From assembly GCA_000165345.1 (NCBI GenBank), contig CM000432.1:1024001-1088000 (forward strand): 64,000 bases of DNA. Reading direction: 5' to 3'. The notes beneath the pieces were generated by a model. It was not told where the DNA came from, searched no databases, and worked only from the letters and a program-made list of their open reading frames with translations. Positions 2,330-55,788 of this stretch are shown here, piece after piece. Each line of letters starts with the position of its first letter. Position 1 is the first letter of the stretch. The translations under genes and the position numbers were made by a program.

Positions 2330-2557
2330 TGTGAACAAAAAAACAGTCAAATATCCTGGTTAAAAAGAAAAAAAAAAATTAATTAAAAAAGAGGAACTTG
2401 ATAATTTAATTGAATAAATTGAATTATTGTCTTAAAATATAATTTTTCTTTTTTAATTTAAGAAAAAAAAGTTATTCTTTCCAAATTAATCCTTTTTTTC
2501 CCCTTTGCCACCCCTCTTTATTTCCCTGCCAAAATAGTAACCAAGTGCCCCTTACGT

Positions 2558-2572
2558 GTTGGCGCCAAAATG
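2558..2572. promoter_or_regulatory. E2F-like element GTTGGCGCCAAAATG in the divergent promoter between the TPR gene (-) and the secreted gene (+)
   Basis: A palindromic TGGCGCCA core flanked by T/A runs. A second half-site CTGCCAAAAT lies at 2526-2535. Confidence 0.55.
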
Positions 2573-2815
2573 CAGCTAAATATTATGAATAGTCGAAAAA
2601 GACTATTATTAATAGAAGAAAAAAAAATTAAAATTAAAAATAAATTAGCTGTGATAATAGCAAATAAACTTTTAATAAAAAAAGAAAAGGAGGATTAAAT
2701 TAACTTTATTTCCTCAGGGATACAAGAATTGAGAAGTTTATGGATATAGACCAAATATATTAATCACTCCATATCGAGATTTTTTATAATTTAATTAATA
2801 TTATTACACGTAATA

Positions 2816-13651: not shown

Positions 13652-16600
13652 TCATTCTTCCGTATCCAAAACACTTAAAGGAATTCTGTCATCCTGAATT
13701 AGCTCATCTATATGCTTAATATGCTTGTATCCTGGTGGAATAGAAATATTCATATTCTTGTTAAATTTTATTCTTCTCGGATTTCCACTTGCCGAATCGA
13801 AATTTTGAGATTTACGAGCTAAAATTAAATCTTTCTTTTCAGTAGATTGAACTTGAACAAGAAGGAATGAAGCATAATCGTTTAAAATATGATTCATTTT
13901 GGATTTGAAGCCGAAAAAATCAAGTTCCTTAAGACTTTCTATTATTGATTCCGAATATCCAAGATTAAACTTATGGCTATTAAACTCTTCATCAATATCC
14001 GATTTTAACAACTTATTCTTGAGCTTTGAAATAGTTAAATTCTTTATTGCCTTATAATCCCCTCCAAAACCATTCTTGAGGTAATTATTATATTTATCTG
14101 TAAATTTAGATATATATAACCCCAAATCATTAGCTGAGTAATCCCAAGACTCTAATTGAACACTCCATTTATAATAACTATCAAATGCCTCAATGAATGT
14201 CTTTAAACTCAAACTTTCACTTGTTGTTTTTAAAGACTCATTAAGCCAGTATGTATTGTAATAGGCATCATTTAAATATAAGATTCCGATATCAACATTG
14301 TCAGTATAAAAATCCTGAATATTCTTATAGATGATGATATCCAATAAAGCAATATTTGGACCAAATTCATCCGAACTTAATTTAAAATCCAAGTAACCAC
14401 TACTCATTACTTCATTTGTACAATTAATCTGACCACATTCCTCATTTAGTAACTTAAATAGATTCTCAATTGAAAACGTTTTATCAAGTTTCTTCATCGC
14501 TTTTTCACCAAAATTTGAATTAATATAATTCTTTGATAATTCAAAATAATCTGGACGATTATAATGATAAAATACTTTTTTATTAGCTGTACCACGAAAA
14601 TCCTTAATTGGGAAAGATCTGCTCTTAAATAATTTAAAACATTGCTCTTTTTTAGCTTTAATACCAACTCTAGTCGAAAATTCCTTTAATAATTTCTCTA
14701 ATTCTGCTCTATCCAAGTTACCTATAAATAATCCATCAATACATAAATTCTCCTTAAATTTTTTAAATTCATTATATAATTCTTGATAAGTTATTTGACT
14801 TAAACCTAAGTATTGCCGACCCAATGTTGGATAATTTGGAGCAGTTATTCTCCAAGAAAGTTCTCTTGCTTTAAGCTCTGAAGTTATTGTTTCTTTTTTT
14901 CTCATTAATAATCCTTTATAAATGAATAATGAGTCATTTAAAACTGCCTCTGTAATAACTTCTTCTGAATTTAATGATGAAAAGATGGTCTTAATAATAA
15001 TATATAAACTTGAACTATAACCACTTATATGTAAATCTATGCTTGGAACATTTGAAAGTTGTTCGGGACTATTTCTTGGACTAAATGTAAGCTTTGCATC
15101 TTGAATTAAAGGTAAATTTAAAGTATTATTCATTGAAATCACTAAAATATAGCTCAATATCAAAGTAATAAATTTAAAAGAATTAAAAGCTGAACTTAGT
15201 CTTAATATTCCTTTAAAATACGGCTGTTTCTTATCATTTCTAGCTTTATACCAAACATTAACATTTTCAGAAATAGAAATTTGTGTATCATGATATTTAC
15301 ATATAGCTAAACGACGATCTCGAACCATTTTGGTCTTAAAAATATCCCCAATTTTGGTTAATAAATAATAATTAGGATAGAATTCATTATAGCTTTCAAT
15401 GAATGTATTTAATTCAGTATCAACAACAGCATCATTTCCAGGATTTGGAGAATTTGAAGTACATTCCCAAATAAAGTCAACAAGTTTGAAGTCTTTTGGA
15501 GTATATGGATTGATAAATGGTCTAGAAAGTCCATTAATAATACCAAAAGATTCTTTAGTTTGTTTTAAACGATTGATTAGTCTTGGAGAGATCTTTTTAA
15601 TATTATATTTGATTTTAAGGAGTGGTTCTTCATAATGATATACGTACTTTCCATTGCAATCAATGATTCTATTTCTTGATGATTTACTAAAACATTCATC
15701 ATTACCAGAATTGCTGCTAAATGAGTAGAAACTAGTATTAAATACCTGATTTTCAACAATTTCGGTAATATTTTCAACATAATCTTCATAATTATTACTC
15801 ATTAAATAATTAGCTTGGTTTGAATTAACTAGAATGAGTATGTTTTCAATATCCAAGAAATTTAAGATTTTATTAAATTCTTCTAATTCAAGGTCGTTGT
15901 ACTTACAATATCTTTCCAATTTATGCCAAACATTATAATTAATCAAAGAACTGATTCTATCTTGAATATTTAATTTAAAATCAAACCAATTAAAGTTCAT
16001 ATAATTAGCAACACAGTTATTGATAAGAAATTCAAAGTATTCTTTTTTAATTTTTGTTTTACGTAAAAGTACCACAGAACTATATAATAATTCAAGAGTT
16101 TCCTCTAATAGAATTTGTTCAACATCAGATTCAACTTCAAACCAAACTAGAGCAAGTCTTTCTGCATAATATTCAACATTACAAGTTAATATAAGAGGAG
16201 AAATAGCATTTCTAAGTGAGCCAGAGTATTCTCCACAAAAGTAATGTTTGACCAAATATTCAAATAAGGGTATTCTATTTGAGCCTAATATGGCCCCCTT
16301 TTCGGAATCCAGAACAAATACAAATGAGATCTTGTTATCAACTCCTTTATATTCAACAAAATTTCCTAATAGACCTTGAGTATGTAAATTTTTCAATCCA
16401 ATATTATATCTCATAAGTTTGATATCTGTATTTAGATTTGGAATGGTTGAGAAATGTCTATTTACCAATGTAGTCAAATGTTCAAAAGTTAAAGAAGACT
16501 CAATAACTAACTTCATGATATTTGAACTATAGAATTTCTTTTTAAACTTCTTAATTTCTTTGACCAAATCAGAAATTACACAATTTTTCATTGTCATAAG

Positions 16601-17104
16601 TGATCCTCGTAATTCTGAATTAAATATTGATTTTAAGACAGCATTTCTTTGAACTGCACTGGAATTCACTTCATTTTCATATTCTTTTTTCAACATTCCC
16701 AAACATGTAGTTACAATTTCTTCAGAATAATCAAGTACATCTAGAGAGCTCCTTATTCTTCTTAAATACTCATCCAGACACTCAGATGAGAAAATTCCTG
16801 AGAATTCAATGGTTGTTTCACTAGACTGAGGAATCCAATAATATGTAATGCATGCCTGACCTTTTTTTTGTATAGAGTCCATTACTTTCGTGAATTGTTT
16901 TCCTTCAGTCTGAAAATATTGGGAAACACAACTTAGAACTTTTGAGAAGCCTAAGTAATCTTTTGGGTCGAAAATTGAACCCAAGTCTAAACCGAAACTC
17001 ACTAATGATAATTTGTCTGAGCTCGAAATTAGTAGTACCTCCAGCTTATTTGGCAGATAAAATTTCTTTACCAAGCCTGAAGGATTAATGTTACCCGAAA
17101 TCAT
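13652..17104 (-). CDS. insulinase-like (peptidase M16 family) protein lacking the HxxEH zinc-binding motif, so probably non-catalytic; 1150 aa
   Basis: ATG at 17104. The N-terminus aligns to M16 family topology (LPNKLEVLLISS...SFGLDLGSIFDPKDYLGFSKVLSCVSQYFQTEG). The GLAHFLEHMLF position is occupied by GFSKVLSCVSQYF, and no HxxEH occurs anywhere in the ORF. Large expanded paralogous families of such proteins are typical of Cryptosporidium genomes. Confidence 0.6.
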   Translation of the reverse strand: MISGNINPSGLVKKFYLPNKLEVLLISSSDKLSLVSFGLDLGSIFDPKDYLGFSKVLSCVSQYFQTEGKQFTKVMDSIQKKGQACITYYWIPQSSETTIEFSGIFSSECLDEYLRRIRSSLDVLDYSEEIVTTCLGMLKKEYENEVNSSAVQRNAVLKSIFNSELRGSLMTMKNCVISDLVKEIKKFKKKFYSSNIMKLVIESSLTFEHLTTLVNRHFSTIPNLNTDIKLMRYNIGLKNLHTQGLLGNFVEYKGVDNKISFVFVLDSEKGAILGSNRIPLFEYLVKHYFCGEYSGSLRNAISPLILTCNVEYYAERLALVWFEVESDVEQILLEETLELLYSSVVLLRKTKIKKEYFEFLINNCVANYMNFNWFDFKLNIQDRISSLINYNVWHKLERYCKYNDLELEEFNKILNFLDIENILILVNSNQANYLMSNNYEDYVENITEIVENQVFNTSFYSFSSNSGNDECFSKSSRNRIIDCNGKYVYHYEEPLLKIKYNIKKISPRLINRLKQTKESFGIINGLSRPFINPYTPKDFKLVDFIWECTSNSPNPGNDAVVDTELNTFIESYNEFYPNYYLLTKIGDIFKTKMVRDRRLAICKYHDTQISISENVNVWYKARNDKKQPYFKGILRLSSAFNSFKFITLILSYILVISMNNTLNLPLIQDAKLTFSPRNSPEQLSNVPSIDLHISGYSSSLYIIIKTIFSSLNSEEVITEAVLNDSLFIYKGLLMRKKETITSELKARELSWRITAPNYPTLGRQYLGLSQITYQELYNEFKKFKENLCIDGLFIGNLDRAELEKLLKEFSTRVGIKAKKEQCFKLFKSRSFPIKDFRGTANKKVFYHYNRPDYFELSKNYINSNFGEKAMKKLDKTFSIENLFKLLNEECGQINCTNEVMSSGYLDFKLSSDEFGPNIALLDIIIYKNIQDFYTDNVDIGILYLNDAYYNTYWLNESLKTTSESLSLKTFIEAFDSYYKWSVQLESWDYSANDLGLYISKFTDKYNNYLKNGFGGDYKAIKNLTISKLKNKLLKSDIDEEFNSHKFNLGYSESIIESLKELDFFGFKSKMNHILNDYASFLLVQVQSTEKKDLILARKSQNFDSASGNPRRIKFNKNMNISIPPGYKHIKHIDELIQDDRIPLSVLDTEE

Positions 17105-17852: not shown

Positions 17853-19223
17853 CTATACAAACCTACCTGGATCAAATTGATGTGAAAAAACAAGTTGATT
17901 ATTGACGAGCTTGATTAAGGTAGTTTTTGAACAAAATGAGCATAGGCATCTCATCAGATACTTGGAAAGTTTAATAATTTGACTGAATTCAGGATCTTTC
18001 TTGTAAACTTGGAGAATTGATTGAATAATCCTTTTAGCTCCATATGCTGCAATGATATGAGAGTAAACCTCAGTTCTTTGACATGATTTAATTAGGACAA
18101 TTAAACCCTGTTGAACTATTTGATGATTATTAACATTAATATCGATAATTTCCAATATTTCCCTTATAATATCAGGATTGTTAAGTTTAAAGTCTTGAGA
18201 AGTGAATAGTATGGAAACATATATTGCCAATATATTTTCAATGAGAAATATATCTTGATTCTTCCCTAACTTTTTTGTAATTAATTCAAAAACTCCTAAT
18301 TTCAAAAACTCGTTACATGCGTTTAAACTTGATCTAATAAGAAATCTCAGAGCTGCAAACCCCCAAATTTGAGTTCTTTCATCAAGCTTTTCATCTTTTA
18401 AATATAGCATGATTTTTTTCCCAATATTAGAATCAATCCAAATCTATTATTAATAATTTGTAAAGAATTTCAAAAGGGAACCGTAAATAAAGTTTTAGCT
18501 GTTTTCAAAAGTGCCATATTGTTTTACTTACCTCGGATACGCTTAATGAATCGGATGACGAAATAAAAATTAATCTAAAAATTGCCAACAAAATCGAATT
18601 GTTCACTGAAGAATTCAAAATATTCTTCTCCAAATATGTAAATAGCTCCAATATTTCTGGAATAATCTATTATAATTTGAGTTTACAAGTTTTTTAAAGC
18701 TCATTCTTAATTATAGATTTCTTAAACTTACTATTGGAACCATTCTTTCGGAAACACCATCATTAAAAAATAAATGAGTTAGCAAAAAAATACATATTAG
18801 CACTATTTCAGGTGATTTCTTATGATATTTTATGGTATTTAATAATATTTCCACAGCTCCAGATTCACACATATGATTTCTTATTATCGAATTCCCATCA
18901 AGTGGGTCCAATAACTCTGTTATTTCAATTAGTCGCGATAATAAAAAAATTGTATCAACTTCAGAACGTAGCTGCCTTAATATCGAAATAATCCAAATGG
19001 CATGTAATTCTTTTATTTGAGGTTGAATAAACTCTGTAGATAAATTATGGGCTTTATTCCCAAAATTTATTCCTTCATAAGTTATTATGTCCCAGAAAGA
19101 CAATAATCGATTACCATTATGATTTCTAATAACAAATTTCTGAGATAATTCCAATCCATTGTTTTTTTTCTTTAATTTTATATTCTTTACTGCACCCTCA
19201 TCTTTTGAAACACAACATCCCAT
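17853..19223 (-). CDS. N-terminally acylated (MGCCVSK) armadillo-repeat protein, ARO/Vac8-like. Three exons on the minus strand at 19223..18732, 18666..18532 and 18443..17853, giving about 405 aa
   Basis: The track shows two separate ORFs (18711..19223 and 17853..18410). On the minus strand VPI|GTAAGT (donor at 18731) joins through an AATAG acceptor at 18668-18667 to a 135-nt exon. That exon reads IIPEILELFTYLEKNILNSSVNNSILLAIFRLIFISSSDSLSVSE and ends at GAG|GTAAGT (18531). An ATAATAG acceptor at 18445-18444 then reopens the frame as IWIDSNIGKKI-MLYLKDEK. All junctions are phase 0. The MGCC start gives a Gly2 myristoylation site plus Cys3/Cys4 palmitoylation sites. Confidence 0.7.
18444..18531 (-). 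other. predicted spliceosomal intron (88 nt, GTAAGT...ATAG)
   Basis: Donor GTAAGTAAAAC and acceptor TAATAG. It joins two phase-0 exons of the ARO-like gene. Confidence 0.6.
18667..18731 (-). other. predicted spliceosomal intron (65 nt, GTAAGT...AATAG)
   Basis: The donor GTAAGTTTAAG lies directly after the ATA codon. Splicing removes the in-frame TAA at 18711-18713. Confidence 0.6.
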
Positions 19224-19941: not shown

Positions 19942-20889
19942 ATGAAGTTAATTCATGTATTTTCTCCTATTTTCCTTTTATTTGTAATATTCTGCGATTT
20001 TACAGAAAGAAGCTTTTTGTCAAAAATTTCACTTGTAAGAACAAAAATAATCCACAAGGAAAGTAATGCGAAGGATGGGATAATTATTCCAGACTTATCT
20101 GACACTCCCAAAAACGAAGAGCCACTGTATTTAGTTGAAGGATTAATTGATTTATCTGAGGAAGTTGATGATGATGATGATTACAGGGATGAAATAATCT
20201 TCATAGATGATATGGAAAGAAGCAATTTAGATGAACCCACTTCTAATGATGATGATAAATTAAGTTCTGGGGATGAAACACGAAATATTAATGATTCTCA
20301 AAACAATGATGAATTAGAGATTGATAATAAGAGTGAAATTCCAGAATTTAATACTGAATTATATTTCAATAGTCACAAGTGTTTCCTAATGTTAGGTTTC
20401 GAAGTTGAGTTCTTAGAAAATCCAATTTTGAATAACTCCGGAGTACTGAAGTATATCAAGGAAGCAGAAATTAACACAGAAGGTGAGACAGTTAAAAATC
20501 ACGAGTATACAGATGATGAGAAATATAAGTTGATTGAATTGGAAACAAGAAACAAAAAACGTGATGAGATAATTTCTCTAATGAAACATTTAAGAGAATC
20601 TTGCTGGAATATTACTTCACAAAGCACATTAGAAGAATTCAAAAATGAAGTTCTGGATATTATTGAAATTGTTAAGTCAAAAATTTGTCAGATTAATATT
20701 AAATTGGAGAATTATATTAAGATTACAGACAAAGAGAACTCTGAGTTTGATTTTGATAATTATGAAAGTAATATGGAAAAGAAAAGCAAACTTTTCGGAA
20801 GAAAAAGTTCTTATAAGTTGGCTCTTTCTTCATTAAAGAGAATTGAAGAATACTGGTCTCACATTGAAAATCTTCCTTGCAATATTTAA
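19942..20889 (+). CDS. secreted acidic protein (signal peptide followed by a D/E-rich region), with no known domain
   Basis: ATG at 19942. The N-terminus MKLIHVFSPIFLLFVIFCDF is signal-peptide-like. It contains DDDDDYRDE and E/D-rich tracts. Confidence 0.7.
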   Translation: MKLIHVFSPIFLLFVIFCDFTERSFLSKISLVRTKIIHKESNAKDGIIIPDLSDTPKNEEPLYLVEGLIDLSEEVDDDDDYRDEIIFIDDMERSNLDEPTSNDDDKLSSGDETRNINDSQNNDELEIDNKSEIPEFNTELYFNSHKCFLMLGFEVEFLENPILNNSGVLKYIKEAEINTEGETVKNHEYTDDEKYKLIELETRNKKRDEIISLMKHLRESCWNITSQSTLEEFKNEVLDIIEIVKSKICQINIKLENYIKITDKENSEFDFDNYESNMEKKSKLFGRKSSYKLALSSLKRIEEYWSHIENLPCNI

Positions 20890-21423
20890 CATTTTTTCAC
20901 ATTTAGATTAATTATTAACTAATATAGGCAAAGAAAAATGTGTGCTTAGATTTAAAATAACAAAATGATTAATTCTAAATCAAATCATATGATTACAGCA
21001 ACTACAGTATGATTATATAAAAATAATTCAATTTTAATATATAATATCTATTTGCTTAAAGTACATATCGCAATTTCTATCTTATTTTCTTACATGGAAT
21101 AATTATTACATGCATATTTGAAGTTCGGGCTTTAGCGCCTTCATTATGAGGGTAAATTATTTTTCTTATGTATTAAAAATTGTATTAGTTACCCACTGCA
21201 TAACTTTGTTTGAACTTTGGGGGAAAGAGGGAAAACAATTTATCCTTAAGCGAATAATATGTAAATTGATAAGTTTGGAATATTAAATCGCTATAGGAAT
21301 GAGAAAATAAATTTGATAATTGTGTGTGTGTTTTTTTTCAATTAGCCTCTAAAATACAGAATCTTTGGAATTCCCAGAATTTACTTGGTTTAATAAATTA
21401 ATTCGAATTGGGATTTGAAAAGA

Positions 21424-24400
21424 ATGATACACGATGTTTTACTTTCTCTTACAGGGTTTGTTGGGGATAAGATTGAAGTGGACCCTGTAGAATTTACAAG
21501 TAACTCAATTTCTTTGTATAGTTATAAATATAGATTGAGACTCAAATCTAATATTGAGGAATATTTATCAGAAACTGAAAAATTATTAGTGGACAAGATT
21601 TTGCATATTTCTAGCAACTTCTATTCTGTTAATGAATTTGTTAAAAGAGTTCTAGGCTCTGTGTACAACAAGCATAGTAATTATAATTCAAATACAAACA
21701 CGAATCCAGCTTTTGGATCAAAATTTAACCAAGAAAAGAGCCATCAACTTCAAATTAGAGCAGATCTTAAGAAAAGATTACTCAGAATTAACCCTGTTGG
21801 ACTATATATACATGCAGTAGCAAAATGCATGCAGGAGTATATTCTTCGATTTCTTCAGAAGATTAATCAGTTAGAAAGAGAAGTTTTTGAAAATCCGAGT
21901 TTGCCTCTTACTTTTGTACTAACTTCAATAACAAAACCCTCCAGAGTTTTAGATAATTTTATGGCATTCATTGATGAGTGGTATAATCTTGCTCTTAATT
22001 CAAGAGTAGATTCTACATGTAAATTCTCGTTTTCAAATATGTTTATTACAATGGAAAAATTTGAAAATTTGTGTGAAATATATATAAGTATTCCATGTGG
22101 ATATATATTGGATTATTTCTATTTGGGAGTGTCTTCTGGAGATTTACTTCAGGAATCAGTGAGCAAAAACTTTCTATTGGTATGTAGTCGAATCTTTTGC
22201 TATCAAATGATAAATTGGATTATTTTAGGAAAGTTGGTTGACCCTTTTGAAGAGTTTATTGTCGGAAGGTTTTCCATTTCAGCTCCTACTAATTCATTAA
22301 ACTCCCAAAAGGATGCTAACTTTTCAAACTCATTTTCAATCTCTTCAAATGATAGGTAAGTTTGAGTTTTTGGTTAAATTGAAGAATAACCATTTTGGAA
22401 TCTTTTTAATTTTTACAAATCATTCTAATTAATCTTTAATATAGCTGTATTGAAGCCTTGGACTTGGATGAAAATTTATGTAAACTTTATCGTGAGGAGG
22501 AAATTTCCCATTGCGGGGTTTTTGAATGGGAGGGACTATTTTATACCAGATATGAATCCTTTACGAAGAAATTCTTTACAGTAAAGTTCCTTTACAAAAT
22601 CTTTGGTATTGGGAAAATTGTAAGTAAATCTTGTTCTTCCTTAGATAAGGAAGATTTTTATTTGTATTTATTCTCAAACAATCCTCATTTCCTTCTAATT
22701 TTTAGGTAAGACTTCTAAATAGATATGGGAATAGTAATATTAGAGATAGAATGAATGAAACAGGGTTTGAGAGTTACATTAATCAAATTTCAAACATTCT
22801 TAATGAATCGTTTCCGCATATTCAGTCCCAGTTGGAAGGGTTTCTTGAAAAATTCAGAAGGGAGATTTCTTTTATTATGTATGAATCAATAATTTTAAGA
22901 AGCCAAAACAACATAGCACACAAATTTGCATATAAAAATCTTTTTTCTCAAAACATCAAATTAATCCGAAATTTATATTTCCTTGGGTATTCTGACATTT
23001 TTCTTCAACTAGATAATTCCATTTTCTACAAAAATCTAAGCTATGATGACTCCCAAACACGTAATACTAACTTTACTGAACAGTCTGAATTCATCTCAAA
23101 CACTTGGAAAGAACTTTTGTCTTTATTCAAATTAGGCAATATTACCTCAAGTATTCATAATGATTTCTCAAACTCCAGAATTAACTTATGCTGCGACACA
23201 TTTGATCTTTTCAACTTTAACCTAAACGAGCTCGAATTAATTGACATGTTTAATTGCTCCCTTACAAATAACAATATACTCCTTTTTGGCGGGAAATCTG
23301 AAATGCATGCAGACCAATATTTGCATTCTGAAAATGAAAAATTAAAGAATGAAGGTGATGAGGGCCATGAAGATTATATTTCTGAAGATTTTGGTATTAC
23401 AGATTGCAACTTTGATTTTCCTTATGAAAATTTTCATGCAATTTCAATCTCTAGAGTCAAGTGGCCAATTCGTATCATAGATGGCTTTAATCATATATTA
23501 GAATGCGTTTCTTCTGTAAACGTAGTTTCATCTTTATTGTTCGCAGCATCTAATAGTATTCCATTTATTGGCGATGGAATTTGTACTTCTCAGGAGGATG
23601 GTTCAGGACACGATGGTGAGTTTTTAAGACTTACGTGGAGCTTTAGATTTAAGGATGAAAATAAACAAGTTATGGAATTCTGTATTAAGCTGTATTGGCA
23701 TACAAAACACTTGAGATCTTTGTTAAATACTGAAAAGGAGTATTCACTATTAAAAACCAATTTACTTGAAGTTCCCAATCCCTTTATCAATTTAATGGAA
23801 GGCGATTTATTCGCATATAGACTTAGGATTTTGTTCAAACAATCAAATATTTCAATATATATGGAGCCACTAAAAAATACCCTTCCTGGCTCAAATTCAC
23901 TCTTTGGAAGACCAACTCAGGTACTGAGTATTCAACATATTAATATTGATATTTGTTTACCTTTGCATACTTCGTCATGTTTTATTCATCTACTAAGACA
24001 TAATGATCACGCAAGATTCGAAAAGGAGAAAGAATTTAAGGTTTTTAAATGGTGTCATATAAGTTCCTCTAATAATTCAGATGTAATTTCTCAGCTAGCA
24101 AACTCTTGCAGCATGGGAGCGTCTTCAAGTACAAACTATAACTTTAATTTATTAAAAAACGTCTCGTTAAATTCTTATCTAAGTGGAATAAGCTTTGATC
24201 ATCATATATTTAGATTAAGAATTATCCAGAAATTTGATTGGCCGTTACCACTTTTATTCACAAAAAAGAATATGGAACATTACTATAATCTATTTGATTT
24301 TTATTGGCTATTTTTCAGAACATATAATGGGCTTGAAAGGATTTGGAGAGAGGCTTTCAATCTAAGATATGGAAATAGAAGAGGGGCATTCACTTCATTT

Positions 24401-25390
24401 TCTATTGAACATCCAGTGAACCATTTTTGGAATTATATTTTTTACTGTAGATGGGTTCTACAAGTAACAATTGGTGAATATTACTCTTTTCTTCAACACT
24501 TTGTAGTTGAACAAAGCTTCAGAGACTTTCTCGATAAGGTCAAGGAAGAGCAAGATTTTGAGAATATTATCCAAAAACATAATGACCTTGTTCAAACACT
24601 TATTCTTAAATCGGGGTTCCTTTTACCCTCTATTTTAAACCCATTAACATCAATTCTAGTTTTAACAGGTGAATGGAGTTACTCTATTTTTAGAGAAATA
24701 TCTAGATGGAATGATTCCAGCGAATTTATTGAAGCAAATTACACATTCTCAAATGCTGAAGAGATTAAATTCCCATGGGATAGTGATGAATGGCAATCTA
24801 TTATCAATAGTACAATAAATTTCATGAATAACTTTATTCTACTCTGGGATAATCTTTGCTCTGAAATTTCAATAGTTTCAAGTAATATTCAATATCAACA
24901 CTTTAGCCTTTTGCTATCTATTTTCAATAATCACAAATGGAATATTGATATACCTGACCTTAATAATGCTAACAACAGAAAAGCTTTCCCTTATGGCTCT
25001 TTTGGTCCATCACACTCGGACTATAATTATGGGGATGACGAATACAGAGAGGAAACTGTAACACACTCCGTAGTAGACCGTTCGGAAGACTTTGAAAGCG
25101 ACAACTACACAGATTCAAGAGAAGAGGACAATAGCGATAACTATTTCAATAGTCAAGATGATCTTGAAGATGATTATGACAATGAACTTGATTTATTCAG
25201 AGGTGAATTTAATGAATACAATAATAATAACGACAATGATGAAAATAATAACGAGAATAAACAAAGTCAATACTCACCACATATGCTTGATGGAACAAAT
25301 AACAGCTATATCGAGCTCATAAACTCCAAACTTAGTGCCACTTATCTAAAAACAAACAAAATCGAATATAATAGCTATCAGAGTTCATAA
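21424..25390 (+). CDS. gamma-tubulin complex protein (GCP/Spc97-Spc98 family, GCP4-like N-terminus) with long insertions and an acidic C-terminal tail. Three exons at 21424..~22355, 22445..22619 and 22706..25390, giving about 1263 aa
   Basis: The N-terminus MIHDVLLSLTGFVGDKI matches the conserved GCP N-terminal signature (compare human GCP4 MIHELLLALSGYPGSIF). The C-terminal GRIP2-like region reads WLFFRTYNGLERIWREAF...HNDLVQTLILKSGF. The track gives three ORFs (21415, 22458, 22751), joined by GAT AG|GTAAGT at about 22356 to an ATAG acceptor at 22444, and by AAA ATT|GTAAGT at 22620 to a TTTTTAG acceptor at 22705. Phases are consistent (2 then 0). The track start 21415 is TTG. Confidence 0.75.
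22356..22444 (+). other. predicted intron 1 of the GCP gene (about 89 nt)
   Basis: Donor GTAAGTTTGAG and acceptor TTTAATATAG. It removes the TAA that terminates track ORF 21415..22359. Coordinates are accurate to about 1 nt. Confidence 0.55.
22620..22705 (+). other. predicted intron 2 of the GCP gene (86 nt)
   Basis: Donor GTAAGTAAATC and acceptor TCTAATTTTTAG. The downstream exon begins GTA AGA CTT in frame with the 22751 ORF. Confidence 0.6.
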
Positions 25391-25860
25391 TTACAAATAT
25401 ATTGAAAGTGTATAAAATATTCTAAACATTTATTTAAATTGTTTTTTTCTATTTTTTAATCCTCTATTTGAAATGTCAAACTTGTAAAAATTATTTTCAA
25501 GAGTTTCCCGCCCAAACACATACCGGTGTATGGTACCGAAAAAAAATAATAATTGAGGGGAAATAAGATATGTAAATTGTGAATAAAAGTATATATTAAA
25601 AATAAGTTTAGGTATAGGAAAAAAGAGGAATCAATCAGAGAAAAAAAATTATTTAAATAAAAATTTAAATAATTGAACAAGAGTGAAGAATTGTAAGTGC
25701 TGGGAGTTACATCCGGATTATCAATTTACTCATTCTTTTCTTTAAATATTGCAAAAAAAGAAAAAGGGAGAGCCAAAAATATCAGTCTTTGAAAGTCTTT
25801 TTCATATAAAATTCTTTTGATTTTATTTTTGTGTATGTGTATTTGCAACTTTTAATTGAA

Positions 25861-28122
25861 ATGAACGATAGAAGATACTTTCAAGGCTCTAAGAGAGGAG
25901 AGCTGCACGAATTAAAGGAGGAATTACACTCATCAAGTAAGGAAAAAAAGAAAGAAGCAGTGAAAAAAGTTATTGCAGCAATGACAGTAGGGAAAGATGT
26001 TTCTTCCCTTTTTCCAGATGTTTTAAATTGTATGCAAACTGGTTGTATTGAACTAAAGAAATTAGTATATCTATATATAATAAACTATGCTAAGGTACAG
26101 CCAGAGTTGGCTATTTTAGCTGTAAATACCTTTTTCAAAGATTCTATGGATTCAAATCCTTTAATTAGAGCATTGGCTATTCGAACCATGGGGTATATTA
26201 GACTTGAACAAATTACAGAGTATTTAGTTGAGCCTTTAAGAAGATCATGTAGTGATCCTGATCCATACGTTAGAAAAACTGCAGCAATTTGTATTGCAAA
26301 GTTATATGATATTTCTCCTACTTTAATGGAAGAACAGGGATTCTTTTCCTTGTTGAAGGATATGCTCAAGGATCAAAGTGCAATGGTTGTAGCTAATACT
26401 GTTGCAAGCTTATTAGAAATTTATGAAACTAGTATAAGTAAGGGTCATCAACTTGAATCTTTACAATCTATAAAAGACGATAAACAAGACCAAGGAATGA
26501 CTGAAGATCAGAAATTCTACAAATTGACTTTTAATGAGGTAGAAAAACACCAAATCCTACAAGCCTTGAATGAATGTACAGAATGGGGGCAGATTTATAT
26601 ACTAAATGTAGTAGCAGAGTGGAAGGTATCAACTGAAAAAGAAAGTGAACAAATCATCGATAGATTAACTTCTAGACTATCTCATGCAAATCCTGCAGTA
26701 GTTCTTTCAACTGTTAGAGCTGTTTTGAATCTACTGAAAAATTTGGAAAATGATGATTATATTACAGGTACCCTACGTAAATTAAGACCACCGATTGTTA
26801 CATTACTTACAACTTCACCTCCTGAAGTACAATATGTTGTTTTGAGGAATGTTCAGTTAATTGTACAATCATATCCTGCCTTTTTTGAAACAGAAATGAA
26901 GCTTTTCTATTGTAAATATAATGATCCTGCCTATATTAAGATTGAAAAGCTTAATTTATTATATAGAATGGCATCTATTGATACTGCAAATAATTTATTA
27001 AAAGAACTAAAAGAGTATAGTACCGATACGAATATAGAATTCTCAAGAAATTCTATTAAAATTATTGCATTAATATCTATAAAATTCAAAGAAACTGCCT
27101 CTAATTGTTTTCAAATCCTAGCAGAACTTATCACAAATTCTCATCAGGACCATATAATTCAAGAAGGAATTATCTCTTTAAGAGATATTTTGAGATCCTA
27201 TCCACAATTATCGTCAAATGTAATTCCCATACTAATGGAAGTATCAGAATCTATTGTTGAGCCTGAATCAAGATCTGCTTTTGTTTGGATTATTGGAGAA
27301 GTTTATGAGTTTGTTCAAGTAACAAAACCAAGTACAAAAAATGAAACTTTGAATGATTTTCTCCGTTATTTTGTTGATATATTTATTGAAGAATCAGTCT
27401 CCGTTCAACTTCAGATACTTACAACCATAGTAAAATGCTTTCTTAAAGCTCCAATTCATAATCAACAACTTGTTACTGATATTTTTAGACTTGCAACTAC
27501 TAATGCAGAAAATCCTGATGTTAGAGACAGAGCCTTGATATACTGGAGACTTCTCTCAACCAATCCTGAGGAAACTAGAAAAGTTGTTCTTTCTCAAAAG
27601 ACTGTATTATCTTCAAAAAGCTTTGATATTGAACCAAAACTTCTTGAAAAGCTTATGGGAGATCTTGGAATGATTTCCTCAGTATATCATAAACCTCCAA
27701 GTTGTTTTATTGATATTAGTAAGAATAATATAGTTCAAAATCAACTTCAAGCTTCTTCTGAATCTCAAAATCATTCAGCTTTAATTTCATCATCAGATTC
27801 CAATATCGATACACTTCCTTATAATATTGATTCTGGTTTTTCTGTTAGTTACTCAAATACTAACGAGCTAATAAATATTGATGATCTTATTTCTTATTCT
27901 ACTCCTGTATCAAATATTAACAGTAACAAAATATCAAGTTCTCAAGATATGAATTCGTCAAATCAAGTTCAAAGTTCTGAGCTTTTAGATTTTGGTCTCC
28001 CTGCTTCTAATATAAGCTTATTCAAAAGTAATACTCAGGGAGACAATAATCAAACAGGAGATGTGAACTCACAGCCATCTGGTAGCAATGTTGTTACATC
28101 TGTTGATCTGTTATCTCTCTAA
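25861..28122 (+). CDS. AP (clathrin adaptor) complex beta subunit, beta-adaptin of AP-1/AP-2 type
   Basis: There is near-identity over long stretches to beta-adaptins, for example KKEAVKKVIAAMTVGKDVSSLFPDVLNCMQT, LKKLVYLYIINYAKVQPELAILAVNTF and DPYVRKTAAICIAKLYDI. The track start 25831 is GTG, and the first ATG at 25861 gives MNDRRYFQGSKRGELHELKEEL as in metazoan AP2B1. The C-terminal part is S/N-rich. Confidence 0.92.
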   Translation: MNDRRYFQGSKRGELHELKEELHSSSKEKKKEAVKKVIAAMTVGKDVSSLFPDVLNCMQTGCIELKKLVYLYIINYAKVQPELAILAVNTFFKDSMDSNPLIRALAIRTMGYIRLEQITEYLVEPLRRSCSDPDPYVRKTAAICIAKLYDISPTLMEEQGFFSLLKDMLKDQSAMVVANTVASLLEIYETSISKGHQLESLQSIKDDKQDQGMTEDQKFYKLTFNEVEKHQILQALNECTEWGQIYILNVVAEWKVSTEKESEQIIDRLTSRLSHANPAVVLSTVRAVLNLLKNLENDDYITGTLRKLRPPIVTLLTTSPPEVQYVVLRNVQLIVQSYPAFFETEMKLFYCKYNDPAYIKIEKLNLLYRMASIDTANNLLKELKEYSTDTNIEFSRNSIKIIALISIKFKETASNCFQILAELITNSHQDHIIQEGIISLRDILRSYPQLSSNVIPILMEVSESIVEPESRSAFVWIIGEVYEFVQVTKPSTKNETLNDFLRYFVDIFIEESVSVQLQILTTIVKCFLKAPIHNQQLVTDIFRLATTNAENPDVRDRALIYWRLLSTNPEETRKVVLSQKTVLSSKSFDIEPKLLEKLMGDLGMISSVYHKPPSCFIDISKNNIVQNQLQASSESQNHSALISSSDSNIDTLPYNIDSGFSVSYSNTNELINIDDLISYSTPVSNINSNKISSSQDMNSSNQVQSSELLDFGLPASNISLFKSNTQGDNNQTGDVNSQPSGSNVVTSVDLLSL

Positions 28123-28423
28123 AAAGTAATAACTTTATAAACTTCAAGTTATATCTAACTAGAATATCATTAAAGTACAACATTTAAAATAGTCAATAGA
28201 AAAAAAAAGTTAAGGAGGTTTGATAATTTTCTTTTATATAATCCCAATGTCTTTTGATTAAAATTTGTGTATTTTTTTATAATAAAATACAAATTCACTT
28301 TTGTATTACTCCAATTTGAGCAATAATTCTTAATTTGAAGTGTTTGATATTAAGTTAAAATAAAAAAGGATTAGCAATAAATCTTTGGATTACTTTCTTG
28401 ACAAAATTGTAGAAATCCTTATA

Positions 28424-29390
28424 TTACTTCTCCTTATTACTTGTATTATTTGCATTTTCAAAATTATTATTATTATTATCTAAACCAATAGAAGACATAA
28501 AATCTCTCACATCATCTATTGTTATGGTATTTTTATTTTGGTCATCACTCATTCTGCTTCTTAAAAATGATATAAACTTATCAGCAAATTCTCTATAACC
28601 TTGAGCTAAATGTATCTTCTTTTCATGAGGTAATGAATTAAATATATTTGCAAAACCATTAATTCCGTTTGCTCCTGATTCACCAGATTCACTCTCATCT
28701 GAGCCACTAAATCCAAAAATATCTCCTTCGAGTATTTCCTGAATAGTAATTGTTTTGTCATCTTCAGAATCTTCTATTGTATCTTCGTTTACATTGTCCA
28801 AGATTTCATCGCTTTCTTTAATATTTTCAATCTCATCCTTATTCTTGCAATATCTCAAAGAAATTCCATTATAATTTAAATGGGTTATTCTTTCTTTACT
28901 TTCAAAAACTACTCTAGTATTATCTGACTTAAATTCATCTCTTTCTTCATATTTGAGCTGTTAAATTAAAAGAAGTTAATTTGTTTGTTTTAATTGGATT
29001 TAATTAAAAGATTCTTTTGAAAGTACAAATCAAGCCTTATCTTTCTAATCAAACCAAAGACTTGACTTGAATTGACTTATCAAATATATTAACTTAACTT
29101 ACCATATAAACTCTTCTACCTTTTGAATCCCTTTCCTCATTTTCTGTCATTAATATTCTCCCTGGCCACCACACAATTTCCTCTTTTTCTAATAATTCTT
29201 TAGAATTATCATGATCACAAAATTCGGTACCTATTATCCACTTTAAAAGTGATATTTAAATACAGAATTTTAATGTTTTAGGAAAAAAAATTGGTTAACT
29301 TACTCTTACAAAGATTGTTTGGCCAATATTTATTCCATAGGAAGCCTTTAAGATTGCAATATCACAAAAATCTCTAATTTGATTACTCAT
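28424..29390 (-). CDS. three-exon gene on the minus strand (29390..29304, 29240..29103, 28957..28424) encoding a 252-aa protein with an acidic, S/E/D-rich C-terminal half; function unknown
   Basis: ATG at 29390 gives MSNQIRDFCDIAILKASYGINIGQTIFVR and ends at AGA|GTAAGT (29303). A TTTTAAAG acceptor at 29242-29241 opens the next exon WIIGTEFCDHDNSKELLEKEEIVWWPGRILMTENEERDSKGRRVYM, ending at ATG|GTAAGT (29102). A TTTAACAG acceptor at 28959-28958 opens LKYEERDEF..., which runs into the track ORF 28424..28858. All phases are 0. An alternative first donor TTT|GTAAGA sits 6 nt upstream. Confidence 0.6.
28958..29102 (-). other. predicted intron (145 nt, GTAAGT...AACAG)
   Basis: See the exon logic of the 28424..29390 gene above. 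Confidence 0.55.
29241..29303 (-). other. predicted intron (63 nt, GTAAGT...TTAAAG)
   Basis: See the exon logic of the 28424..29390 gene above. Confidence 0.55.
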
Positions 29391-30021
29391 TATAGCATTA
29401 ATTAATGAAAAAGATATAGGTTCATACTATACTTGCTATTAATACAAACGCTTGGATTAAGCAATATATTCAAACAAATAATAGAATATTACGTATTTTG
29501 ACCTCTTGTTATCTTTTCTTAATTAAATATTCGAAAGATTTTACTAAAATAAGAAAGTTCACTTTTTTTTGAGTTACTTTTTATTATTTTTTAATAAATT
29601 ATTAATTAGTCCTTAATTTTCCCTCATTTACCTATTTACCGGAATTTTCTATTCCAGAATTTAATATACTAAGACGTTATAAAACTTTATTTAGAAAAAG
29701 TTTTGTGGGAATTCAAATCCAATCCGTATATAATAAAAATAAAAATTGCTAGTATTCTCAATATCTTCCATTTTTAATTGTTTCCAGGAAAATACTGTAA
29801 CATGTGAGTTTATTTATAGCTATATTTTGATTAATTTAAATATATCTATACGTAGATACACTAATGTTTAAAGTTAGAGTTATCAATATTGATATTTACT
29901 TAATTTAGAAAATCAGAAAGAATTTTTATCTGCTCCTTTTTGAAATTTAAAGTTTTTTAAATCTCCTACTTCCCCTCGATTAAATCTTTAATTTTGCATT
30001 AATATTATTGGGTACCCTCCA

Positions 30022-30036
30022 TTTAGGCGCCAAATG
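30022..30036. promoter_or_regulatory. E2F-like TTTAGGCGCCAAATG in the divergent promoter of the 3-exon gene (-) and the RING-H2 gene (+)
   Basis: Direct reading of the sequence. Confidence 0.5.
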
Positions 30037-30236
30037 ATTTATCTAATATAATTAATGGCCGAGTTGGAAAAAAAAATAAAAAGATTTAAGGAATACAAAG
30101 AAAAAATAATAAAAAGCAAATAGAGAATAAGATTTATTAAAAGGGTTGAAATTGGTGGATTTAGATTACTGAGGGAATTGGTATAGATTTGATAGGTTTA
30201 GAGTAAAGAGCAGAGTAAAAGAAAAGAAGAAATTAA

Positions 30237-31622
30237 ATGGAGTCTAATTTATATGTTTCTAGACAGAGAGGAGATGAGACAAATCATATATTAGTTAGAG
30301 AATATCAAACATGCCTATCTGGTTATCCTGATACGAGACAACATGGAAGTTTTGAGAATTTATCAAGACCATATACTCCATTGAGGGATATAACAGGCAG
30401 TATATTTGGAGGATTAGTACGTGAATCAAGAGTAAGATCAGTGAATGAATCTAACGATTTTAATAGAATTAGGAACTCTATGGTAGAAAGATTAAATAGA
30501 GAGAGTATAAGAGGTCCAGAAAGTCGGTTTTTTGGGTTTGACTCAAATAATAGAAATACGTCCTATTATAATAGTCATGAAAATGACATAAGGGCATTTA
30601 ATAGGTCAATGTCTATGAGCAGTCCAAATTTAGATATTGGCTTTGCTTCATTATCTAGAAATAGTTCTAATGAAGCAATTGAGAATAATAGTAGCTTTTT
30701 GAATAGAAGTAGAAGTTTTGCTGATAGAATTATGGAGCAGTTTGATATTGTAGAAAGGGAACATAATCAATTAGCTGAAAGAATTCATAGAAGTCAATCA
30801 ATTTATGAGCAGATTCAGAGGAATGGAGCTGAAATTGATCAACTTTTTGATAATTTATCATATAGAATGCAAAGAAGACATACTCAAAGAGAAAATTCTA
30901 CTGGTAATAATTTTCAATCTAGAAATACAAGATATGGTGGGTCTGTAATAGATTGTAGTAGAAATGGCCACATTAATCATAGATTTAGTAACAGACCAAG
31001 ATTCGTATCTATGCAAGATGTCCATAATCATTTTCGTGATAATCTATTGGCTACTGAAGAACATGAAGAAGAGGAAGATTATGATGATCAAGATAATGAT
31101 GTCATTGAAATTATTCAGGTTGATGATGATGAAATTTCCGATATTATATCCAGAAGAAATGCAGATATTAGAAATAGATCACTAATTATTACTCAAGAGG
31201 AAATCATTATGGAAGAAAGTAATGATCCTGAAGATTCTGAGGATGAACATGAACAAAATCATGGCCAAGAATATGATCAATATCATGAAGATGAAGAAAT
31301 GCATAATGATGGTAATATAACAAGAGTATTAAATAGGCTTAGAGATAGAATTTCTCAAAATCAAGAAGAAGATGTTTCTGGGGTGCCTATCAATATTCAA
31401 AATGCATTACCAGTATCAAAATTTGATTTATCAAGATCTCAGAATTTGGATGATGATAAGAAAATGTGTTTAATTTGTTTGGATGAGTTTAAGGACCAGC
31501 AAGAAATTCTATGGCTTCCATGTACTCATTGTTTCTGCAGAAATTGTATTACTTCTTGGTTTGAAAGAGGAACAGTATGTCCTATTTGCAAGGATGATTT
31601 ATTGGCTCATTTTAATTATTAG
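30237..31622 (+). CDS. RING-H2 finger E3 ubiquitin-ligase-like protein (C-terminal RING), with an N/S/R-rich N-terminal region and an acidic DEH-rich middle
   Basis: The C-terminal motif is CLICLDEFKDQQEILWLPCTHCFCRNCITSWFERGTVCPICKDD, matching the C3H2C3 RING-H2 pattern. Confidence 0.85.
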   Translation: MESNLYVSRQRGDETNHILVREYQTCLSGYPDTRQHGSFENLSRPYTPLRDITGSIFGGLVRESRVRSVNESNDFNRIRNSMVERLNRESIRGPESRFFGFDSNNRNTSYYNSHENDIRAFNRSMSMSSPNLDIGFASLSRNSSNEAIENNSSFLNRSRSFADRIMEQFDIVEREHNQLAERIHRSQSIYEQIQRNGAEIDQLFDNLSYRMQRRHTQRENSTGNNFQSRNTRYGGSVIDCSRNGHINHRFSNRPRFVSMQDVHNHFRDNLLATEEHEEEEDYDDQDNDVIEIIQVDDDEISDIISRRNADIRNRSLIITQEEIIMEESNDPEDSEDEHEQNHGQEYDQYHEDEEMHNDGNITRVLNRLRDRISQNQEEDVSGVPINIQNALPVSKFDLSRSQNLDDDKKMCLICLDEFKDQQEILWLPCTHCFCRNCITSWFERGTVCPICKDDLLAHFNY

Positions 31623-31777: not shown

Positions 31778-34384
31778 TTACTCAAAACCTTTAATTTTGA
31801 AAGGTATATTCTTCACAAGAAAGTTCTTCAAAGTCAAAGCATCAATTAAGAGCGATATCCAAATATCTGAACCAAATATATTTATAGTCTCATAATAAAT
31901 TTCTTTGTTTTGCTCGAATTTACTACAATTCGGAGAAATTAAAGCTCCTTTAAATGTTTGAATAATTCTTGATGATACTAACTTCCGAATAATAATCTTA
32001 ATAGATACTGTATCCAAATATTCTATATATGAATACCCTACTAATGATAGAATTGTAAGCATTCTTTTTTCAATCTTTAATAAAGAAACAGAATTCTCAT
32101 AAGCTGAATTATCAGAATAAGATAATTCAATTTCATCATCAAAGCCTACAGTCCCATCATCTTTCTCTTCAAGTTCCATTTTATGTTTGAATTCAAGCTC
32201 CAAAATTAATGAGGCCAAAAATACTTTATATGACAAAGGAAGAGTTTCAACTAAATTAATTGATACATTATTTAATAAAACTTCTCTACATGCAGCTTGT
32301 ACATGTGGAATTTGAACTTGAAGCTTCTTGTTAGATTTGTTACTTTTATCTATTTTGGAATTTTTGGCTTGCTCAAATTCTTGTTTACAAATTTCCCAAG
32401 CTCTATGAAGGACTTGGAGTGCTCTCCTAACATCAGAAGATTGTTGAGCAATTCTCCTAGCACAGAACTCAACAGCTTTATGACAAAATACGGACTCAAG
32501 ATCTTCTTGTAAAGTTTCAATATTCTTATTTTTGTTTTTATTTCTAATTCTAGGACTTAACCTTCTTCCTTGATCATTTTTATCGCAAGTTTCAATATTA
32601 ATATCAGGTAAGCCAGGAGAAAAATACTTAACTCTATCATTTAAAATAGTGATCATATCTTCAACAGAAAATGGAGTAAAATTGACTCTTGCATAACCAC
32701 ATCTGGATGTACATCTTGGTATAAGTCTTTCAGGAAGATCCATTGTATTAGCAATTGCTATTATGATTAACTTTGTATTTTTTTGGAATGGCCAATCAAT
32801 TAAAGTATAGAGTAAAGAATTGTTAGATCCTTCCATAGTAGAATGTGAAGTTCCATTTTTTTGAAGCCAGTCAATTTCATCAATAACAAGAATAGTAATT
32901 GGGCTCCCTTTAGCCTTTAAATACTTGTCTAAAGATGTATAACATGCTTCTTTATTTGGAGCCCATGTATTAGCTCCATTAAGTTTTTGAAGAAAAGTTC
33001 TGTAAAAATGATCAGGACTACTTAAATGAAGAGCATTAATATAACAAACAGAAATTTTACTTTGATTTTTATTACTCAAATTCATTTCTGTCTCAAGCAT
33101 ATCCAATGTATTTAATACTGTTGCAGTTTTACCAGTACCTGGCAAACCTGCAATAAATAAAACTCCACCTCCTTCATTTAAAATGGAAGTTTTAAGTACA
33201 AGTGTGATTTCTTCATGCTCCTTTTCTCTACAAGGTAGAACTTTTTTTGGACGTTTTGACCAATGTAAATCTGATATTTCTTTGCTTCCAGTAGTTCCTT
33301 GTATTCCATCAAGAGAATCGCCACTTAATTGTGTTCTATTTGATCCAGAACTCATTGAGAGTTGCTTTAAAGCCATATAATTTGTATAATATCCATAGTA
33401 ACTACTACATCTTGAAAGTAAATATGATAAATTTCTTCTTTCACTAATTGGGACTATTGTACCAGTATCAGTTAAAACAAGATACAATGCTAAATAGTTA
33501 TCAGAAACTTCTACAGAATAAGAAGGAAGATCATCATTAAACTCCTTTATGTACTCAATTAATCTCTCATCATGATATTTACAAGAGACAAAACTTTCTT
33601 CTCCTTTGTGAAGAGTTTCTGGATCACATTTCTGAGGGCCAGAATATATTTCCAAACAATCTTTAGTCCATTTCAAATAATCTTTTTTGATATTCCAAAT
33701 ACGAATCATCCTTTTAATTACACTAGCTTCTAAAACTTCACATTTATCGCTTTCAAGGAACTCTTCTTCAAATGTGAACAAATTATCTGGCAATTTAGAT
33801 TTATCAATAATTTTACCTAAATCAAGCAAGTCGTGTTCAGAGTAAAACCATCTTAACTCCACCCCTTGTAAATCTTCTTCAGGATCATATAGAAAAGCCG
33901 TAATTTGTGCTGGTCTTTCATCTCCATTTGATAAACAAACCATTACGTGGTCTCCAATAGTGAACACATCTTTTTCTTCTTTGCTTTCTATTATAAGATG
34001 TGTATATAAGTGATATCCTTGGGAAGTTACTATTGGAGATTTCATCATTTCAGTATTTCCCTCAAATTTATCCAAATGATTTGAAATTTCAAAACTCTCT
34101 AATTTAACATTCTTCCCTTTACGTCCTCTCTTATTCTTTATTTCAAATACTTCCATATCTTTTTCAACTTTTCTTTTTTTTCCATTTGAATACTTTGAAT
34201 AATTATCTGTTGCCAAACCATAAGAAATGGTTAGATATTCAATATTAAAGAAGTACCTTTTTTCATTTTTTCTTCTTCCTCTTTTCAAAATACTCTTGCT
34301 TTCCACCAATTTTGAGGATTGGAGCTTAGACCCCGTGCTCTGCCTAAGTTCAAAGCTTGTAATTCTTCTATCTACTATAGCCAT
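31778..34384 (-). CDS. ORC1: origin recognition complex subunit 1 (ORC1/CDC6 family AAA+ ATPase with N-terminal BAH domain)
   Basis: A BAH domain (FTIGDHVMVCLSNGDERPAQITAFLYDPEEDLQGVELRWFYSEHDL) is followed by AAA+ motifs: Walker A GLPGTGKTATV, Walker B ITILVIDEIDWL, and a sensor plus winged-helix region near the C-terminus. The track start 34396 is TTG, with the first ATG at 34384. Confidence 0.8.
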   Translation of the reverse strand: MAIVDRRITSFELRQSTGSKLQSSKLVESKSILKRGRRKNEKRYFFNIEYLTISYGLATDNYSKYSNGKKRKVEKDMEVFEIKNKRGRKGKNVKLESFEISNHLDKFEGNTEMMKSPIVTSQGYHLYTHLIIESKEEKDVFTIGDHVMVCLSNGDERPAQITAFLYDPEEDLQGVELRWFYSEHDLLDLGKIIDKSKLPDNLFTFEEEFLESDKCEVLEASVIKRMIRIWNIKKDYLKWTKDCLEIYSGPQKCDPETLHKGEESFVSCKYHDERLIEYIKEFNDDLPSYSVEVSDNYLALYLVLTDTGTIVPISERRNLSYLLSRCSSYYGYYTNYMALKQLSMSSGSNRTQLSGDSLDGIQGTTGSKEISDLHWSKRPKKVLPCREKEHEEITLVLKTSILNEGGGVLFIAGLPGTGKTATVLNTLDMLETEMNLSNKNQSKISVCYINALHLSSPDHFYRTFLQKLNGANTWAPNKEACYTSLDKYLKAKGSPITILVIDEIDWLQKNGTSHSTMEGSNNSLLYTLIDWPFQKNTKLIIIAIANTMDLPERLIPRCTSRCGYARVNFTPFSVEDMITILNDRVKYFSPGLPDINIETCDKNDQGRRLSPRIRNKNKNKNIETLQEDLESVFCHKAVEFCARRIAQQSSDVRRALQVLHRAWEICKQEFEQAKNSKIDKSNKSNKKLQVQIPHVQAACREVLLNNVSINLVETLPLSYKVFLASLILELEFKHKMELEEKDDGTVGFDDEIELSYSDNSAYENSVSLLKIEKRMLTILSLVGYSYIEYLDTVSIKIIIRKLVSSRIIQTFKGALISPNCSKFEQNKEIYYETINIFGSDIWISLLIDALTLKNFLVKNIPFKIKGFE

Positions 34385-35129
34385 TTTTCTTGACAAAATC
34401 TCACTAGATTTTTTCCCCTAATCAATCAAACTTTGTATAGTTATTGAAAATAATCCATCTAATCTAATATATTCTTACTTTTTTTAAATACTTTTTACTC
34501 AATTACTATATTTTTGTTTAAATCAATAACATAAGTTAAAATATCACAAATTTGTTCTTAGAAAAAATATCAAGTACTCTGGTAGAACTGTTTAAGATGA
34601 ATTTATATTAAAATAATCTCCACTTTTCTTTATAACTTAACAAAATATTAATTATTATTTGTTTTTTTTTAATTATTATTTTCAGAAAAAAAATAGTTAC
34701 TAAAGAGGGGCGAAAAGTGGGGAAACATTACAAAATGTCAACTTGTACTTTTTAAGCTTCAAGAAATATATAGTAATATTAATAATAATAATTTTTTAAA
34801 TTAGGCCTACTCTTCTCATAGAATAATAATATATAAAAAATAATTAATTTATGATTTTTTCACTTTGAAGATTTATAAATAAATTTTCTACATAAATGAA
34901 GAAGAAATTAACTAAATTCATTTTAAAAACGGGAATAATTACCAAAAATTCTATTCTTTACAATATTTGTATGTACCTTAAAAATAAAAATAAATGCATG
35001 AATTTAGATAATTATAGGTCTATTGAACTTGCTTGTTTTAATTATTCTTATACAGATATTTTTGCTTCCTTAATATCCCACAATTATTGCCATTTTACTA
35101 ATATTTTCGGTTAAAGTTATAAAGCAAAA

Positions 35130-55504: not shown

Positions 55505-55788
55505 ATAAACAATCTTACTTATTCTTAATCCTTCAGTCCGAGTAATAACAAAATTATCTTACACATCTACATGCAGCCCATAAAATAAATAAATACTTCA
55601 ACCTTTTCAAATTAATTTATATACTGCTATAGCTAAACCACTTTGTAATTCTAAACAACACACCCACACTAATTAACTCATAAGAATGGTTGATTTTTCC
55701 TCGTCTTATCTTTAATGTTTTTGAGATTTATTTACTTTGAAATTTGTTTAGTTTTTTTTTTCTTTCCCATGTTGAGGATGCTAAAGCA

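Follow-up and report, generated by a model that had tools for sequence, protein, structure and literature searches.

The stretch of DNA analyzed here is 64,000 nucleotides long (GenBank assembly GCA_000165345.1, contig CM000432.1, positions 1,024,001 to 1,088,000 of the forward strand); we refer to it as the window and number all positions from its first letter. Window positions 21424-25390 on the plus strand very probably constitute one three-exon protein-coding gene of Cryptosporidium parvum that encodes GCP4 (gamma-tubulin complex protein 4). A previous reading of the bare letters (hereafter the sequence-only reading) had proposed that three consecutive plus-strand open reading frames (ORFs) are joined at this locus by GTAAGT...TAG introns and encode a gamma-tubulin complex protein (GCP) expanded to about 1260 residues. 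Both claims are borne out at exact coordinates, with intron phases of 2 and 0 and an in-frame join that gives 1263 residues.

In the ORF list, the three plus-strand frames run from 21415 to 22359, from 22458 to 22709, and from 22751 to 25390. Exon 1 (21424-22355, plus strand) starts with the ATG at 21424, and in an alignment all full-length orthologues begin there too, with M[IL][HD]D. This exon encodes residues 1-310, which make up most of the GRIP1 domain, and the first two bases of codon 311. The AG left over at 22355 is completed by the C at 22445 to give AGC (Ser) across intron 1 (22356-22444, plus strand), which is 89 nucleotides long, reads GTAAGT...ATATAG, is in phase 2, and has TTCTAAT approximately 20 nucleotides upstream of its 3' AG. 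Exon 2 (22445-22619, plus strand; 175 nucleotides, residues 311-369) has no ATG. It encodes the conserved SCIEAL...FEWEGLFYTR...GIGKI block of GRIP1 and ends on a codon boundary directly before the second GTAAGT. Likewise, intron 2 (22620-22705, plus strand), which is 86 nucleotides long, reads GTAAGT...TTTTAG and is in phase 0, has TTCTAAT approximately 11 nucleotides upstream of its 3' AG. Exon 3 (22706-25390, plus strand) encodes residues 370-1263, comprising the end of GRIP1, an insertion, GRIP2, and an acidic tail, and finishes with the stop TAA at 25388-25390. The joined coding sequence (21424-22355, 22445-22619, and 22706-25390) is 3792 nucleotides long, a multiple of 3, and its 1263-residue product has a single terminal stop. 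Both introns have the boundaries, the compatible phases, and the absence of internal coding constraint expected of U2-type GT-AG introns; their GC contents are 20% (intron 1) and 26%, and those of the exons are 31-34%. Since GTAAGT is not enriched in the window (28 copies against 24 ± 5.5 expected), we did not use the hexamer as evidence for introns. What stands above chance is its placement at the ORF ends with the phases described, together with collinear orthologues, introns shared between species, the pattern of exon and intron conservation, and identity to a deposited protein.

An exact-sequence look-up revealed that the 1263-residue product is identical to QOY42324.1 (CPATCC_001958, C. 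parvum) and to WRK31700.1, named 'putative gamma-tubulin complex 4', and that it is also present in EukProt. The intron coordinates are exactly those that reproduce the deposited C. parvum protein, and the gene model is right. Because the identical protein and its name are in GenBank, the finding is already known: with respect to both gene model and name, the sequence-only reading is a rediscovery of a correction made in the current annotation. The paper on the IOWA-ATCC re-annotation gives 1926 model updates, new introns among them, and states RNA-seq support for 100% of the introns in it (PMC8744675). The 2004 Iowa II annotation splits the locus into EAK87419.1 (311 residues, hypothetical protein) and EAK87418.1 (879 residues, 'possible gamma-tubulin complex 4'), the latter being 100% identical to the third ORF from 22751 on. 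Several other Cryptosporidium records contain broken models. In C. sp. chipmunk genotype I, GCP4 is annotated as two genes of 311 and 872 residues (1175-2110 and 2501-5119 of its record), and the C. hominis and C. tyzzeri records hold split or partial models, the partial ones having 369 residues (equal to exons 1 and 2) plus 870 or 871 residues. In the C. felis and C. canis proteins, GKI is directly followed by additional residues, apparently because the second intron was mis-called. A literature search for cgd4_4280, cgd4_4290, and CPATCC_001958 returned no papers.

Full-length orthologues that are collinear across both junctions are found in C. felis (1290 residues), C. bovis (1215 residues), C. 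ryanae (1168 residues), and C. muris (1310 residues), and their alignment is unbroken at the junctions ...NDS/CxEA... and ...GK[IT]/[VL]R... (the slash marks the junction). The most divergent orthologue found is that of C. muris, at 38% identity. As annotated in C. muris and C. bovis, the gene has both introns at the same codon positions and in the same phases, with lengths of roughly 50-80 nucleotides. In a DNA alignment with chipmunk genotype I, exons 1 and 3 are 86.8% and 87.4% identical, respectively, and contain no insertions or deletions (indels), and the GTAAGT donors and the TAG acceptor are kept. The exons are under purifying selection. 

These data bear on two alternatives to a single functional gene. 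The locus could hold two independent genes, one for a 311-residue protein (21424-22359) and one for the 879-residue 'possible gamma-tubulin complex 4' (22751-25390), with a non-coding middle ORF between them. The deposited records of C. parvum Iowa II, C. hominis, and chipmunk genotype I contain split models of this kind, and each of the two ORFs has an ATG of its own. However, the split would cut a single Pfam GRIP1 match (residues 2-423) that spans both junctions and contains the whole of exon 2. Moreover, exon 2, which lacks an ATG, is 88.6% identical to its chipmunk genotype I counterpart without indels, whereas the introns that flank it are only 65.6% identical (intron 1, length difference of -5 nucleotides) and 63.3% identical (intron 2, +4 nucleotides), with indels that would break a reading frame. 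Full-length annotated orthologues in C. felis, C. bovis, C. ryanae, C. muris, C. hominis, and C. meleagridis, and the matching intron sites in C. muris and C. bovis, likewise argue against two genes, which we consider very unlikely. The second alternative is a decaying pseudogene, in which an ancestral single ORF has been broken by in-frame stops, and it is true that read-through meets a stop immediately past each exon end. Against this, the interruptions have canonical splice signals, a GTAAGT donor and a TAG acceptor, at sites shared throughout the genus; the exons show codon-preserving conservation without indels; and 1100 residues of the protein are conserved between C. parvum and C. muris. 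We consider decay exceedingly improbable.

GCP domains and the match to GCP4

When the joined product is compared with Pfam, both GCP domains score above their gathering thresholds. GCP_N_terminal (PF17681) matches residues 2-423 in one stretch with 63.5 bits, where the gathering score is 29.4, covering profile positions 1-286 of 297, so that the GRIP1 domain (21427-22867, plus strand) extends across all three exons. GCP_C_terminal (PF04130) matches residues 819-1028 with 50.9 bits (gathering score 25.8), in agreement with the GRIP2-like block that the sequence-only reading had placed in the last exon. With both domains above the cut-offs, the protein is a member of the GCP (Spc97-Spc98) family. 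That reading had also pointed to a GCP signature at the start of exon 1. The resemblance is visible, as 8 of 16 residues are identical between MIHDVLLSLTGFVGDK and the GCP4 string MIHELLLALSGYPGSI, with MIHD... aligned to MIHE..., but on its own the stretch lacks significance (score -2.5), and it has weight only because the significant Pfam GRIP1 match begins with it. The GRIP2 core (24203-24952, plus strand; residues 869-1118), by homology the putative gamma-tubulin-binding domain, aligns to residues 454-598 of the GCP4 chain and is the most conserved part of the protein, with 49-69% identity among orthologues.

We compared the protein with solved structures using both the single sequence and a profile built from the Cryptosporidium orthologues. 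The single sequence, searched against all PDB chains, matched GCP4 best, at 5.8e-6, and GCP3 at 8e-3. With the profile, the values were 1.1e-15 (59 bits) for GCP4 and 2e-3 (19 bits) for GCP3, placing GCP4 ahead by about 13 orders of magnitude, and GCP2, GCP5, and GCP6 gave no match at E<=1. Vertebrate GCP4 (PDB 3RIP; chain I of 6V69; 6TF9) is thus the best match among solved structures. Like the Cryptosporidium protein, it has GRIP1 from residue 1 and a GRIP2 with a WPL...LF motif and the helices that follow it; unlike the Cryptosporidium protein, it is 666-677 residues long and has no acidic tail. A short-form GCP4-like protein of 662 residues (P0027) is approximately 22-25% identical to the Cryptosporidium protein by blastp in the matched blocks. 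Searching 1.84 billion representative proteins with a profile yielded 207 relatives, the best of which, after those from Cryptosporidium, come from Cardiosporidium, Besnoitia, Vitrella, Babesia, Neospora, Theileria, and Cyclospora. Two of the relatives from outside Cryptosporidium, those of Neospora and Babesia caballi, are named GCP4 in their source records.

Size is the property that could suggest a different member of the family, either a divergent protein resembling GCP5 or GCP6 or a lineage-specific paralogue. In GCP5 and GCP6, both of them large GCPs, an insertion separates GRIP1 from GRIP2, and a protein of 1263 residues with a large internal insertion is closer to them in these respects than to the 667-residue animal GCP4. 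Against this, GCP5 and GCP6 have N-terminal extensions, whereas position 1 of the PF17681 profile falls at residue 2 of the Cryptosporidium protein, so that GRIP1 begins at the N-terminus as it does in GCP4. In addition, the profile search that found GCP4 at 1e-15 found neither GCP5 nor GCP6 at E<=1, even though both are present in gamma-tubulin ring complex entries such as 6v6s, and the closest proteins from outside the genus include those named GCP4 at source. Finally, Toxoplasma has separately annotated GCP5 and GCP6 (bioRxiv 10.1101/2024.05.25.595886). Taken together, these observations make assignment to a GCP other than GCP4 very unlikely.

The GRIP2 insertion and the acidic tail

The approximately 600 residues that the protein has beyond animal GCP4 stem from an insertion of approximately 325 residues in a GRIP2 loop and a C-terminal tail of 145 residues. 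The insertion (23219-24202, plus strand; residues ~541-868) lies between CDTFDLFNF (~541) and IFRLRIIQKFDWPL (~868). Residues ~457-470 (IRNLYFLG...) pair with GCP4 residues ~360-374, and residue 875 pairs with GCP4 residue 454; approximately 80 residues of GCP4 therefore correspond to approximately 405 here, which gives the net insertion of approximately 325 residues. In the GCP4 crystal structure, the loop that bears the insertion is presumably short and disordered in animal GCP4. Among Cryptosporidium species, residues 471-870, which contain the insertion, are 37-53% identical and include the invariant motifs KWPIRIIDGFNH and EFLRFTW, which are among the most conserved of the whole protein. 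Besides the flanking WPL motif, a hidden Markov model of the insertion and hhalign comparisons found matches in Cryptosporidium only; the best-matching stretch in the profile search of 1.84 billion representatives never lay inside the insertion; and no Pfam family, lectin and galectin models included, matched the insertion at E<=10. We also considered an origin of the insertion by internal duplication and rejected it, as hhalign and blastp comparisons of residues 471-870 with GRIP1 and GRIP2 found nothing.

The tail (24953-25387, plus strand; residues 1119-1263) is acidic and rich in asparagine. Its composition of 23% D+E, 17% N, and 7% K+R agrees with the D/E/N-rich tail described from the letters. 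It is 18-24% identical to the tails of the orthologues, with many gaps, and is fast-evolving and probably disordered.

The protein had also been described as unusually long for a GCP4-like subunit. This holds in comparison with animal GCP4 (666-667 residues in the solved chains) but not in comparison with apicomplexan and chromerid orthologues, which measure 1705 residues in Neospora, 1980 in Besnoitia, 1041-1315 in Babesia, 967 in Theileria equi, and 1275 in Vitrella. At 1263 residues, the protein does not have the compact 'core-only' size of about 660 residues, which is typical of the GCP4 of animals and plants and not strictly defining; since most of the apicomplexan and chromerid orthologues found have 967-1980 residues, compact size is no family requirement in this lineage. 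In Besnoitia, Vitrella, Babesia bovis, Neospora, and Theileria equi, GRIP1 starts from residue 1 and the WPL motif is found at 785-1265, whereas in a typical GCP4 of 662 residues it is found at residue 457. The position of WPL far downstream in these orthologues points to a large insertion at this site that is common across apicomplexans and a chromerid and makes the size normal for the lineage, although their insertions have no detectable sequence similarity to that of Cryptosporidium. The Cardiosporidium protein is shorter (820 residues), and blastp matched it in the GRIP1 part only.

Several points weigh against the reading of the locus as a single spliced GCP4 gene that encodes a subunit of this architecture. 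The support for splicing is comparative and comes otherwise from the published annotation, and the GCP4 assignment draws on how the scores rank, on architecture, and on what neighbouring proteins are called rather than on phylogeny. The PF04130 match covers profile positions 33-237 of 309 only. Gamma-tubulin binding and membership in a ring would follow from the family, and the roles suggested below for the insertion and the tail are speculative. The structural models are weak as well: using a 7-sequence alignment, AlphaFold2 gave a full-length model that is poor (mean predicted local distance difference test score, pLDDT, of 37.5) and unusable, and for a fragment comprising residues 525-892, with an alignment of the same depth, it gave a model with a pLDDT of 46.5 and a predicted template modelling score (pTM) of 0.52.

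Within these limits, the two models place beta strands at nearly the same positions, approximately residues 630-820, and the fragment model adds a strand at approximately residues 614-623. The predicted all-beta core of the insertion (23438-24058, plus strand; residues ~614-820) is the best-scoring part of the models, with a pLDDT of 50-77, and can tentatively be described as a beta-sandwich of the galectin or concanavalin A (ConA)-like type. A Foldseek search with the low-confidence model returned galectins, GH16 enzymes, and coronavirus spike proteins with E values of 1e-3 to 1e-4. The likeness to the galectin/legume-lectin (ConA-like) fold comes from a low-confidence model, with a sequence identity of 5-10% and no Pfam lectin match, and in comparison with lectins, Cryptosporidium GCP4 is expected to be cytosolic or nuclear. 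We thus offer a ConA-like beta-sandwich in GRIP2 tentatively, as a hypothesis and not as a result; it would be the sole residual novelty of the locus. It is possible, though rather doubtful, that the GRIP2 loop carries a folded, genus-specific galectin/ConA-like module of approximately 200 residues that could dock the nucleator to the unusual microtubule-organising sites of the parasite, and that in related apicomplexans this loop has come to be occupied by unrelated sequence.

Neighbouring genes in the window

The gene directly downstream of GCP4 encodes beta-adaptin (25831-28122, plus strand; Adaptin_N, 401 bits), and it is downstream of GCP4 in every species checked (C. muris, C. bovis, and chipmunk genotype I). 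The listed ORF of this gene starts with GTG; the ATG at 25861 (MNDRRYFQ...) is the likely start, and a GTAAGT occurs upstream at 25693. Upstream of GCP4, a plus-strand ORF at 19942-20889 encodes 315 residues with a hydrophobic N-terminus (possibly a signal peptide), acidic stretches, and no Pfam match. C. bovis and C. muris also have a gene of about this length upstream of GCP4.

Another apparent three-exon gene lies on the minus strand at 17853-19223, with ORFs at 18711-19223, 18505-18651, and 17853-18410 and GTAAGT donors at 18731-18726 and 18531-18526. Its product begins with MGCCVSKDEG, a possible N-acylation motif, and in-frame joins give approximately 380-405 residues, with several possible acceptors. 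The only Pfam match is to ARM_ARMC5, weak and below threshold (E of 1e-4). An ARO-type identity has that match as its sole support; it is a guess, and we did not retain it. The C. parvum genome is usually regarded as intron-poor. Paired GTAAGT hexamers are found in two ORF-poor gaps, at 29097 and 29298 (minus strand) in 28122-30237 and at 56478 and 56653 (plus strand) in 55504-57550, and these gaps may hold further intron-containing genes with small exons. The other neighbours are ordinary housekeeping genes, encoding a DEAH-box helicase (10931-13333), an M16-peptidase-like protein (13652-17104, minus strand), a RING finger protein (30237-31622), an AAA/ORC-Cdc6-like ATPase (31778-34396, minus strand), and a diacylglycerol kinase (38491-40002).

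Proposed role at microtubule nucleation sites

By analogy with other members of the family, Cryptosporidium GCP4 would form one spoke of a gamma-tubulin complex. GRIP1 would contact the adjacent GCPs of the ring side by side, and GRIP2, judging from homology, would hold one gamma-tubulin. The assembled ring would then serve as a template on which microtubules are nucleated, both at the spindle poles and where the microtubules of the sporozoite originate apically. More speculatively, the insertion may provide a surface for docking or regulation that is specific to the lineage, and the acidic tail may be a disordered appendage. In Toxoplasma, GCP4 (TGGT1_209970) is essential and occupies the spindle poles as well as the nascent apical scaffold (bioRxiv 10.1101/2024.05.25.595886). 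Cryptosporidium GCP4 is likely to be essential, as in Toxoplasma.

The practical value of the gene model is small: the split models in Iowa II, C. hominis, C. tyzzeri, and chipmunk genotype I represent pieces of a single GCP4 gene, and for orthology, knock-outs, and proteomics, the 1263-residue model is preferable to the split records. The conserved insertion is the only feature that might repay further work. As a whole, GCP4 offers a way to approach how microtubules are nucleated in a parasite whose microtubule cytoskeleton is minimal.

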